A stretch of DNA of 64,000 nucleotides. Source: a virus. The position numbers and the translations under genes were made by a program. Every line of letters begins with the position of its first letter. Within the stretch, counting starts at the first letter, position 1. The notes below the pieces were generated by a model. That model was given only the letters and a program-made list of their open reading frames with translations. It ran no database searches and had not been told where the DNA came from. The stretch covers positions 31,690-95,689 of IMG/VR virus record IMGVR_UViG_3300031578_000009. One strand, 5' to 3'. Below, piece after piece: positions 15,298-37,528 of the stretch.

Positions 15298-15652
15298 AAT
15301 ATTTTAAATCATAATATTTTAAATACTTAACTGGTATATTATTTTCTTCTGCAATCCTTAATTCAGATTGACAACCTTTACTATTTTTAATTAGTTCCAT
15401 GCCACTTTCTCCAATAATTACTACAATAACCTCGTTACATCTTTTAAGTAATTCAGAATCTTGTTTCATCCAAAAATCATGATCTGTTTGTAATCTATCA
15501 TGCATATATTCAGATATTGGATGAGAATGACTTATTGGACTAAATACGATGTTTCCTTTTAACATTAATTCAGAAGCAACTCTATTAGCTATTTTAAATG
15601 AACGTTCTGGATGCCAACTATAAGGAATACATAAGTATATGATTTTACTCAT
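15290..15652 (-). CDS. DUF1937 / nucleoside-deoxyribosyltransferase-like protein
   Basis: IYLCIPYS, VFSPISHSHP, W..QD, SKGCQSE..A pattern. Confidence 0.75.
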   Translation of the reverse strand: MSKIIYLCIPYSWHPERSFKIANRVASELMLKGNIVFSPISHSHPISEYMHDRLQTDHDFWMKQDSELLKRCNEVIVVIIGESGMELIKNSKGCQSELRIAEENNIPVKYLKYYDLKYYE

Positions 15653-29744: not shown

Positions 29745-31051
29745 TTTATATGACGGAGCGTAAAACCAACTCATTACGAAGTGTGGGTTGGATGTAAGCG
29801 ACTCCTTTACACTCACATTTTGACATTTTGTTTGTTTTGTATAAATTGGCATAATTTTTGTAATATATAAACTATGTTTAAATCGTTCAAATACAGAATT
29901 TACCCAACCGAGCCACAAAAAGAGCTTATTGCCAAACATATTGGTAGTAGTCGTTTTGTGTTTAATCTTGCGTTGGAAACTAAAAACGCTGCATATATTG
30001 GTAACAAACATAACTACAGCCCTTTCGATTTAATTAAACAATTACCAGAACTTAAAAAAGAATGTCCTTGGCTAAAAGAAGTAAACTCACAAAGCTTACA
30101 ACAATCTATACAAAATATGGATATTGCTTTTAAGAAATTCTTTAAAGGAGCTGGTTTTCCAAAATTTAAGTCTAAAAGAGATAGACAATCTTTTTCAATA
30201 CCACAAAATGTAATAGTTGAAAATAATCTTTTGATAATACCAAAGTTTAAAGAGGGTATTAAAATATTTTTACATAAACCTACACAAGGTATTGTAAAAA
30301 GTGGAACTATCAGTGTAACACCTACAGGTAAATACTTCGTGTCAATACTTTGTGATACTAAAGAAGATATGCCAATTAAGGTTTCTATTAATGAAAACAC
30401 CACAATAGGTATTGACCTTGGAATAAAAGACTTTGCCATTACCTCAGATGGAGAGGTATTTGATAATCCTAAATTTCTTCGTAAAGCACAAAGTAAATTA
30501 AAATATGTACAACGTAAATACTCAAAACACAAAGGCAAGCGAACTAAAAAGAAACTTGCCAAATTACATGAAGATGTAGTAAACAAACGCAAAGATTTTT
30601 TACACAAAGTTTCAACTAAATTAATTCGTGAGAACCAAACGATAGCCCTTGAAACTTTAGCGGTTAAAAATATGGTTAAAAACCACAATTTAGCACAAGC
30701 AATTAATGATGTAAGTTGGTCAACTTTTGTTTCTATGTTGGAATATAAAGCTGGTTGGTATGGTAAAAATATCCTACGAATAGGACAATTTGCACCATCT
30801 TCAAAAACTTGTTCAAACTGTGGGGCTATCAACAATGAACTACAACTAAAAGACCGTGAATGGACTTGTGGCAGTTGTTCTACTGTTTTAGACCGAGATG
30901 TTAATGCTGCTTGTAACATAAAATCATTTGCTTTAAAAAATATTTTGTCTGGGGAACACAGACTTAAAAGTCAAGACGAACTGCCTACATTAGTAGGAGT
31001 AATGACTCTTGAAGCCAAACCCATCGCCTTTGGCGTGGGTGGGTAGTTCAC
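29745..31051 (+). mobile_element. IS200/IS605-family (IS1341-type, TnpB-only) element
   Basis: Left-end hairpin ccaactca...gtgggttgg (~29766-29791). Right-end hairpin acccatcgcc-ttt-ggcgtgggt ending GTAGTTCAC (31051). Inserted against the operon direction. Left boundary is approximate: TTTAT at 29734 or 29745. Confidence 0.8.
29874..31046 (+). CDS. tnpB: RNA-guided endonuclease TnpB
   Basis: KYRIYPT, RFVFN, RuvC D (GIDLG), E (ALETL), D (DRDVNAA) and Zn ribbon CSNC/CGSC, all intact. Confidence 0.95.
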   Translation: MFKSFKYRIYPTEPQKELIAKHIGSSRFVFNLALETKNAAYIGNKHNYSPFDLIKQLPELKKECPWLKEVNSQSLQQSIQNMDIAFKKFFKGAGFPKFKSKRDRQSFSIPQNVIVENNLLIIPKFKEGIKIFLHKPTQGIVKSGTISVTPTGKYFVSILCDTKEDMPIKVSINENTTIGIDLGIKDFAITSDGEVFDNPKFLRKAQSKLKYVQRKYSKHKGKRTKKKLAKLHEDVVNKRKDFLHKVSTKLIRENQTIALETLAVKNMVKNHNLAQAINDVSWSTFVSMLEYKAGWYGKNILRIGQFAPSSKTCSNCGAINNELQLKDREWTCGSCSTVLDRDVNAACNIKSFALKNILSGEHRLKSQDELPTLVGVMTLEAKPIAFGVGG

Positions 31052-31983: not shown

Positions 31984-32053
31984 TTCTAATTATGTCGTTG
32001 TAAATCATAGTAATAATGTTATTTATTACACATTAATGATGTTTATACAATAG

Positions 32054-32209
32054 TTATGTGGCATTAGGCTTCGGTGTATTTATTTCACGCACCATTTCCA
32101 TAATCTTTTCCATAACCTTTGGCACATACTTTTCACTACAAGTTGTTTCTAACCTAATTCCTGCACGTAATAATGGTGCTTCTACTGTAATTTTATATTT
32201 ATTGTTCAT
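32054..32209 (-). CDS. Cassette 1 ORF (51 aa, not in the ORF track)
   Basis: MNNKYKITVEAPLLRAGIRLETTCSEKYVPKVMEKIMEMVREINTPKPNAT. The stop codon is the complement of the GTTA core. Confidence 0.65.
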   Translation of the reverse strand: MNNKYKITVEAPLLRAGIRLETTCSEKYVPKVMEKIMEMVREINTPKPNAT

Positions 32210-32222
32210 AATTAATAACGCC

Positions 32223-32351
32223 ACATAACAATTTATAAAAAATAATAGCAGGTTATGTGGTACTTGTTAGCTGCTACCGCTGTATTTAAGTTTGTAATTA
32301 TTTCAAAGTGTCAGTTTCAAAGCTGCTACTATTCTTATAATAACGTTAGCG
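32223..32351 (+). other. attC1
   Basis: ACATAAC-aat-ttataaaaaataatagcag...ctgctactattcttataa-taac-GTTAGCG. Confidence 0.85.
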
Positions 32352-32561
32352 TTAATTGCTTTTAAACTTTGCGTACAATATTTCGTTGTAATGTCTATTA
32401 CATTCGTACTGATACACAAATTCACTATTATTTTTACACCACATAACGAAATCTATTGCTTCTTTTTGTAGCAACATATCGCTAACACCAGATAAAAACA
32501 ATTGCTTGTTGTATTCATCTATTGTGGTTTGTGCTTTTTTATAATCGTCTTCTGTTATCAT
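32352..32561 (-). CDS. Cassette 2 ORF
   Basis: 69 aa. Start codon lies inside the attC2 loop. Confidence 0.65.
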   Translation of the reverse strand: MITEDDYKKAQTTIDEYNKQLFLSGVSDMLLQKEAIDFVMWCKNNSEFVYQYECNRHYNEILYAKFKSN

Positions 32562-32609
32562 AATTTTGTTTATTAAATTCGCAACTGTGTTTATCTGTAA
32601 TCGTTATAC
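32480..32609 (+). other. attC2
   Basis: CGCTAAC-ac-cagataaaaacaattgc...gcaactgtgtttatctg-taatc-GTTATAC. Confidence 0.85.
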
Positions 32610-32846
32610 GCAAGCTAAAGAACCGAGCAACGTTTCAACCCATGCGTTTGAATCGGCACATCTTTTGAGTTCTTCTTTGTGCGTTTTTGCACAGTCGGTG
32701 CATACTGGTTGGTTTGTTCTCCAATGCCAAGTATTGGTAGGTTGCTTGCAAAAGTAGCAGCGTTCGTACACACCTGTATTTTCGTACATATCTTTAGTCT
32801 CTTTTACTGTTGGTATCATGATATCAAAATTAACGGGCGGTAACAA
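32604..32846 (-). CDS. Cassette 3 ORF, Zn-finger (CYFC...CTDC)
   Basis: Stop lies in the GTTA core. The true start is probably an internal Met. Confidence 0.6.
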   Translation of the reverse strand: MLPPVNFDIMIPTVKETKDMYENTGVYERCYFCKQPTNTWHWRTNQPVCTDCAKTHKEELKRCADSNAWVETLLGSLACV

Positions 32847-32965
32847 TGTATAAAAAACATAGCTGAGCCTGTGGTTAATATTAAGTTTCTATTTCAATTT
32901 TACATTTGTAAGTTATTGTTGTTCAGTATTTCAAAACGCTACGTTTCTTATACTCAACGTTATAG
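32838..32965 (+). other. attC3
   Basis: CGGTAAC-aat-gtataaaaaacatagc...gctacgtttcttatac-tcaac-GTTATAG. Confidence 0.85.
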
Positions 32966-33160
32966 GGCATTATTGCATTGGTCTAACGCATTTCTCATAT
33001 CCTCATCAGCAAGTTCTTTTAACTTATCAGCAATCATATATAAACCTTCTGGTCCATATTTATCTAACAATGCGTTAAAGTTAATTTCTTTATCAACGCA
33101 CTCTAACAAAGTATATAGTGCATTGCTGTCTTGTTTCAATTTATCATCTTCGTAAATCAT
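32960..33160 (-). CDS. Cassette 4 ORF
   Basis: Starts inside attC4 and stops in the GTTA core of attC3. Confidence 0.65.
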   Translation of the reverse strand: MIYEDDKLKQDSNALYTLLECVDKEINFNALLDKYGPEGLYMIADKLKELADEDMRNALDQCNNAL

Positions 33161-33220
33161 AATCTTTTGTATTTTAATTAATATTTGTGATGCAACGCAC
33201 CATATACTCAGCCGTTATGC
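33101..33220 (+). other. attC4
   Basis: CTCTAAC-aa-agtatatagtgcattgc...gcaacgcaccatatact-cagcc-GTTATGC. Confidence 0.85.
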
Positions 33221-33224
33221 GCAA

Positions 33225-33482
33225 TTATTCAGACGCTTCTTCCAAAAATGGATTGACATCTTCGCCAAGTTCTTTACTGCTATGCTTCATTAAAATTTTA
33301 ACAATATCCCCCTTGTTGATTCTTTTCAGGTTGTTAAATTCAGTGTATATTTCTTGGAGTATTACCTGAAATTCAGCATTGCAGTTGCGTATTCCAAATA
33401 AAATTCCATCATTATAACTGCCCATAACAGCACCTAAATCGCTATTGGCGGTTTCTTCTGTATTCAAATTTTCGTGTTCCAT
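33225..33482 (-). CDS. Cassette 5 ORF
   Basis: 85 aa. Starts inside attC5. Confidence 0.65.
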   Translation of the reverse strand: MEHENLNTEETANSDLGAVMGSYNDGILFGIRNCNAEFQVILQEIYTEFNNLKRINKGDIVKILMKHSSKELGEDVNPFLEEASE

Positions 33483-33553
33483 TGTTACTTTATTTTCATG
33501 TTGATAAATTGCGTTTCAAATCGCCAACAGCGTTTAGCTGCGGCACGTCATGG
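33422..33553 (+). other. attC5 (R' core mutated GTT>GTC)
   Basis: CCATAAC-agc-acctaaatcgctattggcg...cgccaacagcgtttagct-gcggcac-GTCATGG. Confidence 0.8.
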
Positions 33554-33588
33554 GCAAGTGTAAGAAATCCCACGCTCACCTGTTTAAA

Positions 33589-33759
33589 TTACTTGGTATC
33601 TGTGTATTTTACATCACCGTTTTCATCTATACTTCTTTCCACCCCATCCGAGTTCCTATCAACGATATTCCCCCACTCATCTTTTGATGTGTAAAAATCA
33701 GTATCTCTGCCGTAATATTCGGCTTCGGAAACAATGTTTCCCCATTCATCTTTTGGCAT
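33589..33759 (-). CDS. Cassette 6 ORF (56 aa, not in the ORF track) with duplicated KDEWGNIV motif
   Basis: MPKDEWGNIVSEAEYYGRDTDFYTSKDEWGNIVDRNSDGVERSIDENGDVKYTDTK. Confidence 0.65.
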   Translation of the reverse strand: MPKDEWGNIVSEAEYYGRDTDFYTSKDEWGNIVDRNSDGVERSIDENGDVKYTDTK

Positions 33760-33787
33760 ATTAAGCCCTCCTATTATAAACGCCAGC

Positions 33788-33915
33788 CCATAACACTAAA
33801 TATAAAATATACGGGTATTGTGCGTGTTTGAACGGTATTACCTTTAATCAAGTGTTGTGTATCGGGATAGGATACCGCTTTTAATCCCGTACATTTCATA
33901 TTTTTAACGTTATAC
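33788..33915 (+). other. attC6
   Basis: CCATAAC-act-aaatataaaatatacggg...cccgtacatttcatattt-ttaac-GTTATAC. Confidence 0.85.
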
Positions 33916-33921
33916 GCTATA

Positions 33922-34134
33922 CTAATTGACAATCGGATGTTCAATTACCTTATAACCCCAGTCAAGTAATATTTCTTTAACTACATACCATTCACCATTA
34001 AATTCCAGTGCATCAATCGTTGCTTGTGGTGCATCACTATGGAATATTACTTTTCTTTCGTTGATAGAATCATTGAAAGTACAGCGTATAACATCGTGTA
34101 TAGCACATTGCTTTTCGTTCTTCGCATTTTCCAT
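33922..34134 (-). CDS. Cassette 7 ORF
   Basis: 70 aa. Starts inside attC7. Confidence 0.65.
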   Translation of the reverse strand: MENAKNEKQCAIHDVIRCTFNDSINERKVIFHSDAPQATIDALEFNGEWYVVKEILLDWGYKVIEHPIVN

Positions 34135-34209
34135 TTTTAATATATTTTAAAGTTTGTAATTCTATTAAAGTTTTGTGTAAGCAATGTGCTATACACGTAT
34201 CCGTTAGGC
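34086..34209 (+). other. attC7
   Basis: GTATAAC-atc-gtgtatagcacattgctt...aagcaatgtgctatacac-gtatcc-GTTAGGC (perfect 18-bp arms). Confidence 0.9.
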
Positions 34210-34215
34210 GTAATG

Positions 34216-34428
34216 CTAAGAAAGCATCCACTTTAAAGCTTCTACTTTACCGTTGGCAATATTCATTCTATTTTGAACTTTGTCTCCATATTCAATACTT
34301 GCCATTTGGCTCATGTTACATAGTTCTTTGTTAAGTTTTTCAGCCAATAACTCTTGGTCTTTAATTTCAATCTTTATTTCTCTTTCTGTTTTCATAACAA
34401 TTTGAATTAAAGCACATACGCCTAACAA
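34216..34428 (-). CDS. Cassette 8 ORF
   Basis: Likely start at the internal MKTERE. C-terminal KVEALKWML. Confidence 0.6.
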   Translation of the reverse strand: MLGVCALIQIVMKTEREIKIEIKDQELLAEKLNKELCNMSQMASIEYGDKVQNRMNIANGKVEALKWMLS

Positions 34429-34549
34429 TATGTATAGTTAATGGCGGTTTTGTGCGTGGTTTAACATTTATTTTACCTTTTTATTTTTGTTTAGTTTGAT
34501 AGTTTTGTGGTCTTAAATCCGCCACGACACCTTACATTCAACGTTACCA
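34420..34549 (+). other. attC8
   Basis: GCCTAAC-aat-atgtatagttaatggcgg...ccgccacgacaccttacat-tcaac-GTTACCA. Confidence 0.85.
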
Positions 34550-34554
34550 CCCAT

Positions 34555-34884
34555 TTAAAGAGGGCGGTGCAAGTCTATGTTTATTGTAATGTAATGGAAA
34601 AAAGTTATCGTTATATAAGCATATCCTTTCATAAAGGAACGCCTGTAATTTATTAACGATACTTCTTTGTATTTACCACGTTTTTCTTCATCCTGTACAG
34701 GTGTCCTACGTTTTATCTTATAATACCATAAATACCAATCTACGCTGCTTTGTGTTTTCTCGAAATAGAATAAACGGGTGGTAACAATAGATAAAATCCA
34801 TTGCTTAAATTGTGTTAATTTATTGGTTTTCTGTTTCATATCAATATTATTTTTAGTTTGAAAATTTGTAATTCTAAATCGCAA
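34555..34884 (-). CDS. Cassette 9 ORF
   Basis: Probable start MKQKT at 34839, inside attC9. Confidence 0.6.
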   Translation of the reverse strand: MRFRITNFQTKNNIDMKQKTNKLTQFKQWILSIVTTRLFYFEKTQSSVDWYLWYYKIKRRTPVQDEEKRGKYKEVSLINYRRSFMKGYAYITITFFHYITINIDLHRPL

Positions 34885-34908
34885 CGTATCTTATCTGAGC
34901 CGTTAGCG
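34779..34908 (+). other. attC9
   Basis: TGGTAAC-aat-agataaaatccattgc...gcaacgtatcttatct-gagcc-GTTAGCG. Confidence 0.85.
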
Positions 34909-35094
34909 TTCATTTGCCAACGCACTCTTACGCACAATCGGAACTACTTTATACATAAAAGTTGCTCCACCTTGTTGCTGTATAAAATCATAACATTCTT
35001 GCTCTGTTCCTTCAAAGCATTCTTGTCCTTCGTCTGGTGTATAAACCAAATCTAATACTTGATGTGTTGCTTCCATTTTATTTAAGTTTTGCAC
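34903..35094 (-). CDS. Cassette 10 ORF
   Basis: Stop lies in the GTTA core. FEGTEQECYDF motif. Confidence 0.65.
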   Translation of the reverse strand: MQNLNKMEATHQVLDLVYTPDEGQECFEGTEQECYDFIQQQGGATFMYKVVPIVRKSALANER

Positions 35095-35114
35095 CGCCCA
35101 CGCTCAAAACGAAA

Positions 35115-35215
35115 CGCTAACAAGCGGTATAGTTAATAAAGGCTGAATTAAGTTTTATTCTTTGATTGGTCGGTAGTGGTCAGCCTTTACTAAACCATAC
35201 CGCCAGCCGTTATAA
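35115..35215 (+). other. attC10
   Basis: CGCTAAC-aag-cggtatagttaataaaggctga...tcagcctttactaaaccataccg-ccagcc-GTTATAA. Confidence 0.85.
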
Positions 35216-35428
35216 ACAAGGCGTAAGCAACGCCCATTTTGTACCGTCTATAAGGTCAGTATATCGCCCGTAAATCAACACTTCTTTCTTTGCAAGTTGT
35301 TCAGGTGGTGGATAAATTAATATTTCATCACCGTAGTTGGGTTTATCTTCTGGGAAAAACGCCCAGTTTATAACAAGCGGTAATACGGCATTGCCTTCCG
35401 CTTCATTGATACTTTTTTCTGTGTTCAT
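35210..35428 (-). CDS. Cassette 11 ORF
   Basis: Starts inside attC11 and stops in the GTTA core of attC10. Confidence 0.65.
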   Translation of the reverse strand: MNTEKSINEAEGNAVLPLVINWAFFPEDKPNYGDEILIYPPPEQLAKKEVLIYGRYTDLIDGTKWALLTPCL

Positions 35429-35501
35429 AGTTTTGTCCTCGTATTTAAGTTATTACTAATTTGATAAATCGGCAACGACCGCATACCGCCAGCCGTTAGC
35501 A
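35368..35501 (+). other. attC11
   Basis: TTATAAC-aag-cggtaatacggcattgcc...ggcaacgaccgcataccg-ccagcc-GTTAGCA. Confidence 0.85.
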
Positions 35502-35507
35502 CCAATA

Positions 35508-35744
35508 TTAAGGAAGTAACTCGCATTCATGAACTTCCCACCATTGATCATAATCAAATGGATATTCTTTTGCAGGAGGATATTCTTTGCATTCATTTTC
35601 CCACTCTTTTAGTTTTTCAGCCTTGTGAAATTCCATAGCCATTTCAGCACCTTTCTTTGTTTTGTGAATACTTATAGTAGTTGCTGCACTATCATGACAA
35701 TCTGAATTATAAAGAAACTCATATACAAATTCTAGTTTTTCCAT
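35508..35744 (-). CDS. Hypothetical protein (position of a 12th cassette lacking its own attC)
   Basis: Follows the R' of attC11. No matching GGTGCTAAC hairpin seen to its right. Confidence 0.65.
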   Translation of the reverse strand: MEKLEFVYEFLYNSDCHDSAATTISIHKTKKGAEMAMEFHKAEKLKEWENECKEYPPAKEYPFDYDQWWEVHECELLP

Positions 35745-35746
35745 AA

Positions 35747-35944
35747 TTAATTTTCTTTATCTAATTGATAATGCCAAAATAAATCACAAGATGTTCCTGT
35801 TAGCTTATTTATAAAAGGAGCTTCTATCCAAGATACAATAATAGATTTATTATTAACTCCTAATATAAATCTCTTACATATATCTCTTTTGGGACAGATT
35901 CCTCTATTCTTATGCTCTCCTGAACAAAGTGTAATATCTAACAT
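35747..35944 (-). CDS. Small Cys-rich phage protein
   Basis: DITLC.G..CP.R..C.RF motif. Confidence 0.65.
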   Translation of the reverse strand: MLDITLCSGEHKNRGICPKRDICKRFILGVNNKSIIVSWIEAPFINKLTGTSCDLFWHYQLDKEN

Positions 35945-36454: not shown

Positions 36455-37528
36455 TTAATTAATTTTTGTAAGTTTATTTATTGCTACATAATATTCAGGC
36501 TTCATATCATCAGCTTTAGGTAATTCTTTAATAATTCCAGATTCTCCTAAAAACATTGTACCTAATATTTTATCAGCAGCACCTTCTCTGTTTTTAAGTA
36601 TGCTAATAGCTCTAAATCTATCTCCAATTCCACCATCTCTCTTATTTATAAGATAGCCTCTAAAATTAGCAAGTTCATGTCTTTGTGGACTAAATATTGA
36701 TACTACATAATTAGCAGCATCAGTTGTATCACTTGTTTCTTTAAAATCATCAAGAGTTGGCGTAACTGCATCTAGTTTCATTCTATCTGTTGAACCTATT
36801 CCTCTATTTAATTGTTGAACATTTACAAATGAAACTCCAAACATATCTCTTAAATCAATCTGATAAGACATATATTTATCAATATTCTCTTTCTTAGAAA
36901 AACCTCTTTCTCTTTTGATAATTCCTAAATGGTCTGATGCAACTACTACTAATTGTTTTTTATGTGGTTTATAATAATCAAATACTTCTTTTTCTCCATC
37001 ATGAGCTTGTACTGTTTTAGTATAAGTCGTACCATTATCATTAATATACCTTAATACAGTATTCCTAATTCCAGTAGGATTTTCATTGCTAAATACTTCT
37101 ATATATTCTGACATTTGTTCAAAATATTTAGCTAGAGTTTTAGTTTTTTCATAAATTTCTTTAGAAACTCTATTTTTACCTCTTGATAATATATAATTAG
37201 TATCTGCAATAATACCATAATCTAAATAAAGTTTTCTTGCGATAGCTCTAACTCCAAGAGCAGGTTTACTCATCTCTGCACTATATATAAAGATTTTGAG
37301 ATTCATTGAGTCTTTATAATTCTTTATATAGTCTTCATAAGGAGTATATATGAAATTATTTATAACAAACATTGACTTTCCTGAACCCGTGCTACCACCA
37401 CATAAATAAATATTTCCTGGTTGTAGTCCTGGTATATATTCTTGTAATCTTTCTAGTCCTAAATTTAAGCCATTATTCTCACCCTTAATACCAGATTCTA
37501 TTTCTTGCAATCCTAGGTTAAATATCAT
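36455..37528 (-). CDS. dnaB: DnaB-like replicative helicase
   Basis: GGSTGSGKS, SAEM, DHLG, QQLNR and LKNREG motifs. Confidence 0.88.
   Translation of the reverse strand: MIFNLGLQEIESGIKGENNGLNLGLERLQEYIPGLQPGNIYLCGGSTGSGKSMFVINNFIYTPYEDYIKNYKDSMNLKIFIYSAEMSKPALGVRAIARKLYLDYGIIADTNYILSRGKNRVSKEIYEKTKTLAKYFEQMSEYIEVFSNENPTGIRNTVLRYINDNGTTYTKTVQAHDGEKEVFDYYKPHKKQLVVVASDHLGIIKRERGFSKKENIDKYMSYQIDLRDMFGVSFVNVQQLNRGIGSTDRMKLDAVTPTLDDFKETSDTTDAANYVVSIFSPQRHELANFRGYLINKRDGGIGDRFRAISILKNREGAADKILGTMFLGESGIIKELPKADDMKPEYYVAINKLTKIN

Follow-up and report, generated by a model that had tools for sequence, protein, structure and literature searches.

Eleven small genes and eleven hairpins in a phage genome

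The DNA analysed here (hereafter the window) is a stretch of 64,000 nucleotides, bases 31690-95689 of the 95,689-bp record IMGVR_UViG_3300031578_000009, a complete virus genome with direct terminal repeats. Window positions 32054-35495 hold an island of 11 small genes and 11 hairpins that resemble attC, the recombination site of integron cassettes. The 11 open reading frames (ORFs) all begin with ATG, encode 51-94 aa and lie head to tail on the minus strand; the plus strand of the island contains two ATG ORFs only, of 36 and 45 aa. The G+C content is 0.345 (34.5%) in the island as against 0.266 (26.6%) in its flanks, and by this contrast the island is foreign DNA.

The hairpins fall within 32223-35501, measure 101-134 nt each and read TAAC...GTTA on the plus strand, and the units between them are only 136-250 nt long. 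In attC sites two inverted core boxes, R'' (RYYYAAC) and R' (GTTRRRY), bound a hairpin of about 57-141 nt made of spacer, stem and variable loop. Inverted TAAC...GTTA cores are present in 10 of the 11 hairpins (the exception is E5), the stems are 16-19 bp long, and the plus strand reads TAAC-AA(T/G/A) at 8 sites and C-GTTA at all 11. The cores and hairpins are listed below; brackets give the plus-strand positions of the C of the left core (...TAAC) and of the G of the right core (GTTA...).

32053..32062, plus strand: left-end core b0, GTTATGTGGC, perfectly complementary over 10 nt to the R'' core of E1
32223..32351, plus strand as top: hairpin E1, atypical, with double cores (32229, 32345)
32480..32609, plus strand: hairpin E2, attC-like (32486, 32603)
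32838..32965, plus strand: hairpin E3, attC-like (32844, 32959)
33101..33220, plus strand: hairpin E4, the highest-scoring site under the integron attC model described below (plus strand, 21.3 bits, E 0.0011) (33107, 33214)
33434..33538, plus strand: hairpin E5, with degenerate cores CTAAAxC / GTTTAG (33440, 33532)
33788..33915, plus strand: hairpin E6, attC-like (33794, 33909)
34086..34209, plus strand: hairpin E7, whose perfect arms of 19 bp span 34095-34113 and 34179-34197 (34092, 34203)
34420..34549, plus strand: hairpin E8, attC-like (34426, 34543)
34779..34908, plus strand: hairpin E9, attC-like (34785, 34902)
35115..35215, plus strand: hairpin E10, matched by the model on the plus strand with 14.9 bits (35121, 35209)
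35368..35501, plus strand: hairpin E11, ending G|TTAGCACC at 35495 (35374, 35495)

The genes, named A to K from left to right, and one further ORF are the following.

32054..32209, minus strand: gene A, 51 aa, TAA stop inside the b0 core
32352..32561, minus strand: gene B, 69 aa, start in the E2 loop, with an in-unit ATG after GTTAGCGAT
32604..32819, minus strand: gene C, 71 aa, with a CxxC-N15-CxxC motif
32960..33160, minus strand: gene D, 66 aa, start in the E4 loop
33225..33482, minus strand: gene E, 85 aa as the longest ORF
33589..33759, minus strand: gene F, 56 aa, with an internal DEWGNIV repeat
33922..34134, minus strand: gene G, 70 aa, 16 homologues
34216..34395, minus strand: gene H, 59 aa, weak phrog_12106 match
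34555..34839, minus strand: gene I, 94 aa, leader MKQKTNKLTQFKQWILSIV encoded by the E9 loop and arm
34903..35076, minus strand: gene J, 57 aa
35210..35428, minus strand: gene K, 72 aa, 4 homologues
35508..35744, minus strand: ORF L, 78 aa, G+C content 0.33, without a hairpin of its own

The spacers between the ORFs seem to alternate between long (~140 nt) and short (40-80 nt). Alignment of the arms showed that all the 'short' intergenic sites, five or six in number, are the right arms of full-length hairpins, whose left arms overlap the region coding for the N-terminus of the adjacent ORF on the minus strand. For five or six cassettes the longest ORF begins inside the attC loop. The stop codons are in or beside the TAAC core, 6 of the 11 being inside it. 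A hairpin scan of the window recovered 6-9 island sites depending on the threshold, and two weak spurious matches in the other 60 kb. To the left of the b0 core (32053) no convincing hairpin was seen. The hairpins have no U-tract and are therefore not intrinsic terminators.

We then compared the cores. In 7 of the 11 units the left GTTA core is identical over 7-10 nt to the reverse complement of the right TAAC core, while the two cores of any single hairpin match over 4-5 nt only. As in integron cassettes, the R'' core of each of these units is thus complementary to the core remainder at the unit's own start. This is the classical cassette footprint, left by a crossover inside GTT that parts the outer core halves. 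No match to the integrase/tyrosine recombinase family PF00589 was obtained at E<=1 across the whole 95,689-bp genome, and no intI with an attI adjoins the array, as it would in a complete integron. Since the phage has no integrase, we classed the array, with its 11 co-oriented sites within 3.4 kb, among the clusters of attC sites lacking integrase (CALINs; at least two close attC sites and no intI nearby).

Evidence for an attC top strand opposite to the genes

Integron polarity is fixed: the gene lies on the attC top strand, where it is read from the promoter Pc, and this is enforced by the choice of the bottom strand by the integrase. In the bottom strand, which is the one recombined, 5'-RYYYAAC lies in the 5' arm and the extrahelical bases are on the 3' arm; this strand folds more stably, with more G:T pairs, than the top strand (PMC5027507). 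The original prediction, made from the letters of the window, placed the attC top strand on the plus strand and all the genes on the other one, arguing in part from extra bases in the arms. That argument fails: left-arm extra bases occur only in sites 1 and 5, the plus-strand right arm is 2-3 nt longer beside the core in 9 of the 11 sites, and the stems have no bulges. Genuine Bacteroidota attCs show three bulged bases under the same analysis. Because the arm asymmetry is not an extrahelical-base signal, polarity had to be settled by other tests.

A covariance model, R1, was built from 26 intI-anchored Bacteroidota attC top strands, which represent one attC lineage. It gave full-length plus-strand matches at 5 of the 11 sites, E4 (21.3 bits, E 0.0011), E10 (14.9), E7 (9.1), E11 (8.7) and E5 (7.3 bits), whereas the best minus-strand match reached 7.2 bits. 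On three other contigs with hairpins of this family (L035, L022 and L018) the matches of R1 were also on the strand opposite to the ORFs; on loci L102-L105, at default filters, the model found no match. Folding energies pointed the same way. Of the 11 hairpins, 10 are more stable when folded from the minus strand (mean difference -1.49 kcal/mol), with 21 G:T pairs versus 7; among the 26 control integron attCs, 21 favour the bottom strand (mean -1.51 kcal/mol; 66 versus 13 G:T pairs). The phage sites therefore resemble attCs in having one strand that is more stable and richer in G:T.

The spacers beside the cores are 2-3 versus 5 nt long in the phage sites and 2 versus 6 nt in genuine Bacteroidota sites, so that the arm asymmetry agrees with a plus-strand top because the intI-anchored attCs show the same one. 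The minus strand had first been read as top, which would give normal polarity, from the longer 5' arm and the stops in TAAC; this was dropped since the same asymmetry accompanies the opposite assignment in the intI-anchored sites.

Breakpoints between related sequences were examined next, short-sided contig joints being used only when a long record supported them. An independent metagenome holds unit K and the first 18 nt of E11 (1 mismatch) with a different left neighbour from the G of 35209 onwards. An ORF L homologue from another metagenome, 87% identical, begins precisely at the core G of 35495. The breaks at 35209 (b10) and 35495 (b11) are the canonical G|TT of a plus top strand. With that polarity all 11 genes lie within single cassettes, while six would straddle a boundary with the opposite one. 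Finally, the HattCI call for attC1 of Polaribacter phage P12002L makes its bottom strand the coding strand of gp35/gp36 (PMC9892861). The geometry of the array ends on the plus strand (unit first, hairpin last) was also considered; it is a weak argument, as ORF L may be an extra unit and the array on L018 has hairpins at both ends.

Taken together, the R1 model, the G:T and energy bias, the spacer signature, the G|TT breakpoints and the P12002L call agree, and they support the plus strand as attC top strand with all the genes on the bottom strand. None of the 11 genes is thus placed as in a canonical cassette, in which an ORF on the top strand is followed by its attC. On both strand assignments the original prediction was borne out, although not for the reason that it gave.

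The same attC family in Bacteroidota integrons and on phage contigs

In Bacteroidota, the likely host phylum, an integron integrase scoring above the TIGR02249 cut-off is encoded in 113 of 401 genomes (~28%). We examined 16 intI loci (L082-L097), the arrays being on the 5' flank of intI. Across 11 such arrays next to intI, the strand that points away from intI carries 84 of the 99 ORFs, and the attCs on it read TAAC-AAGCG...GGGTC-GTTA. Arrays of ~112-nt attCs in these bacteria are highly uniform over several genomes.

Homologues of ORF C led to further viral and metagenome contigs with the hairpin family of the island, which is also present in P12002L. The better-folding strand is the non-coding one at 45 of 50 bacterial attCs and the coding one at 24 of 25 viral/metagenome hairpins (Fisher p = 1e-13). 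A comparison within a single attC type gave the same picture. The E10 type (TAACAAGCGGTAT...CATACCGCCAGCCGTTA) is present in the bacterial genomes G123 and G012, and among the 401 Bacteroidota genomes such attCs (TAACAAGCGGTA...ACCGCnnnCCGTTA) were found at 4 places in 3 genomes, with top-strand genes at all four. This type is carried by 14 further viral contigs, and 14 of 14 have the flanking genes on the bottom strand. For this attC family, mirror orientation is thus what phage contigs regularly show and what bacterial arrays show only exceptionally, and the phage-associated class of inverted cassettes that had been proposed from the window is supported. The companion proposal, that host integrons act as silent reservoirs of such genes and that some 'empty' bacterial cassettes are of this kind, found no support in the 401 genomes, where the four E10-type sites all have top-strand genes, nor in a 19-mer of the E9-type hairpin, whose true matches were confined to viral contigs.

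Four of the five bacterial exceptions lie at one locus, L084 (G130:C1:1639200-1659100), where the bottom-strand flanking ORFs include ones of 148 and 409 aa; these may be inverted cassettes in a bacterium.

Leaders encoded in the hairpin loops

Several observations concern the junction between the loop-encoded part of a gene and its body. The E9-type loop encodes a leader, MKQKTNKL.QFKQW..SIV, which is joined at a GTT codon to four unrelated bodies in different contigs; the leader of gene I, MKQKTNKLTQFKQWILSIV, is conserved in four other contigs, fused there to unrelated bodies. In 6 of 8 independent hairpin types the GTT is read in frame, as a Val codon. In gene G the conserved core starts at Val17, the GTT of the core box, behind a variable loop-encoded leader which the AlphaFold model shows as disordered, the fold beginning at residue 16. 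The conserved core of gene K likewise starts at the GTT Val codon (VINWAFFPE...) and the N-termini are variable, with NNAVLPL shared across the junction in the K family. Contigs L062 and L063 have the E9-type leader and the hairpin 3' arm with no 5' arm upstream; L060 carries the same gene with a full hairpin. A 19-mer of the E9 loop gave 19 matches in bacterial genomes, all at unrelated gene starts, and true matches only in viral contigs. The leader joins and breakpoints fit either sites that have lost strand selectivity or a rapid divergence of leaders in place.

Proposed explanation and its alternatives

Our reading is that the island is an integrase-less integron-type array that came from a Bacteroidota gene pool and sits inside a minus-strand phage operon, with its top strand on plus and its genes inverted; we give it a probability of about 0.7. 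On the plus strand each cassette would consist of the TTA remainder of a core, a unit of 136-250 nt and an attC hairpin of 101-134 nt ending in G. With the top strand on plus, canonical G|TT crossovers keep each unit with the hairpin on its right and, since all genes are on the bottom strand, the order of transcription is attC hairpin, gene, stop, the latter often being the TAA of the crossover core. The cassette genes are co-oriented with the phage operon, from which they would be expressed, unless signals in the loops serve instead, and the mRNA would carry the more stable, G:U-tolerant version of the hairpin. The integron integrases of the ~28% of sampled Bacteroidota hosts that have one could excise and reinsert the cassettes, and a cassette landing at a host attI would have its gene antisense to Pc. 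Read-through expression in the phage and silencing in host integrons are plausible.

A number of facts weigh against this reading. The phage sites lack the 2-3 extrahelical bases expected on the L'' arm, their stems being uninterrupted, although such bases are a defining determinant of strand choice in the attCs that have been studied. Only two of the 11 sites (E4 and E10) match R1 at E<0.05, 6 have no full-length match, and 4 of the 11 units have no matching cores. Unit G recurs at 99% identity in another metagenome, where the match breaks off 9 nt into E7. In the ORF C family the downstream hairpin, but not the upstream one, is common to L022 and L026, other pairs show the opposite, and crossovers may thus also occur outside the canonical box. 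Among the 14 viral contigs with E10-type sites several look related (L107, L109 and L118), which brings the independent cases nearer to 12. Coding-strand G:T pairs would be equally expected had the hairpins been selected as RNA structures. Lastly, attC1 of P12002L, the only bench-tested member of the family, gave no recombination when assayed with IntI1 in E. coli (PMC9892861).

A more far-reaching form of the proposal, which we regard as doubtful, is that phages of Bacteroidota keep a pool of mirror cassettes, with the host integrase as gene-shuffling engine, attC as 5' leader and sites indifferent to the strand. The upstream attC would supply a start codon and a short disordered N-terminal peptide, in frame through GTT. 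The recombinogenic strand would be the sense strand and, for genes co-oriented with replication, the lagging-strand template, so that arrays would fold and recombine readily in replicating phage DNA. Recombination of either strand, for want of extrahelical bases, would account for breakpoints at both cores and for leaders on unrelated bodies.

The inverted-cassette array has to be weighed against three other explanations. Repeat-mediated shuffling of small genes has been proposed for the stem-loop cassettes of T4-type phages, and the hairpins could by analogy be intergenic repeats of the phage that never were, or no longer are, integrase substrates and act mainly in the mRNA (stability, processing, translation start). 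The small genes would then be shuffled by homologous or illegitimate recombination, the attC likeness would be ancestral or convergent, and the 'polarity' would have no mechanistic meaning. Folding is indeed favoured on the transcribed sense strand (G:T, or G:U, 21 versus 7), the loops hold start codons and conserved leaders, breakpoints occur on both sides of hairpins, and L062 and L063 retain leader and 3' arm with the 5' arm gone; the missing extrahelical bases, the failure of IntI1 on P12002L attC1 and the absence of an integrase from the phage fit as well. Shuffling of that kind does not account for cores that match over 7-10 nt at unit ends and 4-5 nt within hairpins, which is the footprint of GTT crossovers and not of homologous exchange, nor for breakpoints exactly at the G of GTT. 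The same attC type stands in bacterial arrays of ordinary cassette architecture, full-length matches were obtained to a model of intI-anchored attCs, and the hairpins, having no U-tract, are not intrinsic terminators. We thus consider an RNA or repeat element unlikely, and leave it some weight because of the breakpoints, the leaders and the negative result with IntI1.

Normal polarity, in which minus is the working top strand, an attC follows each gene, crossovers occur at the GTT past each hairpin in the direction of transcription and loop-encoded leaders are swapped onto whichever cassette lies downstream, would explain several features: stops in or beside the TAAC core as in ordinary cassettes (6 of 11 within it), a minus-strand 5' arm 2-3 nt longer in 9 of the 11 sites, G and K family cores that begin at GTT behind variable N-termini, an E9-type leader joined there to four unrelated bodies, the in-frame Val in 6 of 8 hairpin types, and the divergence of unit G just inside E7. 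We nevertheless judge it highly unlikely, as model R1, the bias in energy and G:T pairs and the spacer signature all point to a plus-strand top, genuine sites of intI-fixed polarity have the same arm asymmetry, 6 of the 11 genes would straddle a cassette boundary, the genes beside the same attC type in bacteria are on the other strand, and some leader differences, such as those around the shared NNAVLPL of the K family, look like divergence in place. The orientation bias might also be an artefact of sampling or annotation, with a few related phages or misclassified fragments behind it and small ORFs that are not genes. The ORF sizes shared by L107, L109 and L118 go in that direction, as do the facts that L009, L017, L018 and L020 are copies of one phage and that most of the viral/metagenome contigs are short. 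This last explanation is hardly credible given matches from at least a dozen different samples with G+C contents of 0.28-0.41, many homologues for 4 of 4 tested genes, and the same arrangement in P12002L, an isolated and sequenced phage.

Comparison with known systems

Small accessory genes with repeated stem-loops, for which modular shuffling has been proposed, are known from the hyperplastic regions of T4-type phages as promoter-early stem-loop cassettes (PeSLs). Unlike the island, PeSLs are not known to have TAAC/GTTA cores, cassette-specific box complementarity or a counterpart in bacterial integrons. The chromosomal integrons of Bacteroidota share with the phage array the TAAC/GTTA cores, the length of ~100-120 nt, the top-strand signature TAAC-AAGCG ... 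C-GTTA, spacers of 2 versus 5-6 nt, a more stable and G:T-rich bottom strand and cassette-specific core boxes. They differ from it by an intI beside the array, three extrahelical bases on the bottom-strand 3' arm and 85% of ORFs on the top strand, whereas the phage array has no intI, no extrahelical bases and 0 of 11 top-strand genes. The bacterial E10-type sites (G123, G012; L102-L104) are alike in their arms (TAACAnGCGGTAT ... CATACCGCnAnCCGTTA) and in having few or no extrahelical bases; unlike those of the phage, they are flanked by top-strand genes of 140-380 aa, and one sits in an array of at least six sites, the others being single. Antisense cassettes of bacterial integrons also have a gene against the array polarity and expression independent of Pc, but they form a minority of otherwise normal arrays, whereas in the phage every cassette is inverted and the operon could transcribe them.

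CALINs of phages have already been published, with attC-type sites and small genes in virulent phages without integrase (Qi et al. 2023, PMC9892861). Those arrays have 2-4 sites as compared with 11 in the island, and attC1 of P12002L bears the same signature as the island sites, TAAC-GGCTA ... ATT-GTTAGGC on the coding strand. That paper mentions only 'divergent directions' in P12002L and describes no systematic inversion of genes relative to attC; it reports neither ORF starts in attC loops nor a comparison with bacterial arrays that carry the attC type in question (PMC9892861). Three points appear to be new: the mirror orientation as a systematic feature, the position of attC upstream of the gene, and the opposite arrangement in bacteria with one and the same attC type.

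One attC family would thus be common to Bacteroidota chromosomes and phages, with opposite gene orientations in the two. If this is true, phages carry a cassette pool of their own and the flow between phage and host is directional in its effect, since a cassette would be expressed in the phage but antisense, or silent, once in the host. Roughly one in four Bacteroidota genomes has an integron integrase of which such phages could make use. In metagenomic surveys of integrons, 'gene-less' or antisense cassettes would deserve to be re-read on the other strand, and the sites without extrahelical bases offer a concrete set for probing strand choice outside Proteobacteria.

The cassette genes

Genes C, E, G and K have homologues with E values from 1e-17 to 1e-40 and are, judged by these, real genes of the minus strand. 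Four cysteines are invariant among the 17 homologues of gene C (E down to 2.5e-23). The last ~20 aa of the gene C product (32604-32680, minus strand) are wholly unlike the conserved C-terminus of the homologues (KVAELPKCTPDYKPPTKKEY...), and the left core of its cassette does not match the right one; on this comparison the end of the cassette is replaced or truncated. Gene E has 21 homologues which begin at residues 17-22, just past the core. Its long N-terminal extension is for that reason probably not real, and the true start is probably M20, in GTT ATG GGC. Pfam and PHROGs searches of the cassette ORFs returned nothing except the weak phrog_12106 match of gene H, and Foldseek searches of the G and C models against the PDB gave nothing at E<=0.001, with weak zinc-finger-like rows only for C. 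A Bacteroidota-type promoter motif, TAnnTTTG, was read by eye in the loops; it was inconsistent among the sites and we make no claim for it. ORF L may be a twelfth unit, and at 35508-35944 (minus strand) ORF L and perhaps the next ORF (G+C content 0.27) may belong to the acquired island, although this segment has no hairpin.

Surroundings of the island and further observations

The genes around the island are all on the minus strand and have replication functions. They include a DnaB-like helicase (36455-37528, minus strand), a second helicase, a primase and an RNA ligase. A blastn search of the region against 50,697 phage records returned a single 79-nt match, and the relatives found through the DnaB-like helicase are only ~33% identical, too distant for an empty-site comparison. 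About 1 kb from the island, at 29874-31046, a 390-aa ORF matches the 'transposase' family phrog_506 (E 2.9e-121); it is the sole plus-strand gene of the long minus-strand operon.

On L018, positions 15600-15640 of the minus strand form an 'empty' cassette, with 10 nt between GTTATATGC and a matching GCATATAAC and two flanking hairpins, in a phage array of five hairpins. The same contig has a DPPY-containing ORF that looked by eye like a methyltransferase; a Pfam search gave no match for it.

In sequencing run X2, one contig connects 32209 to 35837 through 8 other letters (CGTTAGAA) at a depth close to that of the phage; it may be a variant without most of the island or a repeat artefact. Over runs X1-X5 the summed contig depth on the hairpins (window 32168-35507) is far above that of the phage backbone, as in X3, where it reaches 1745 across 35007-35173 in the absence of any backbone. 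Many sites of this family are therefore carried by some other replicon of high abundance.

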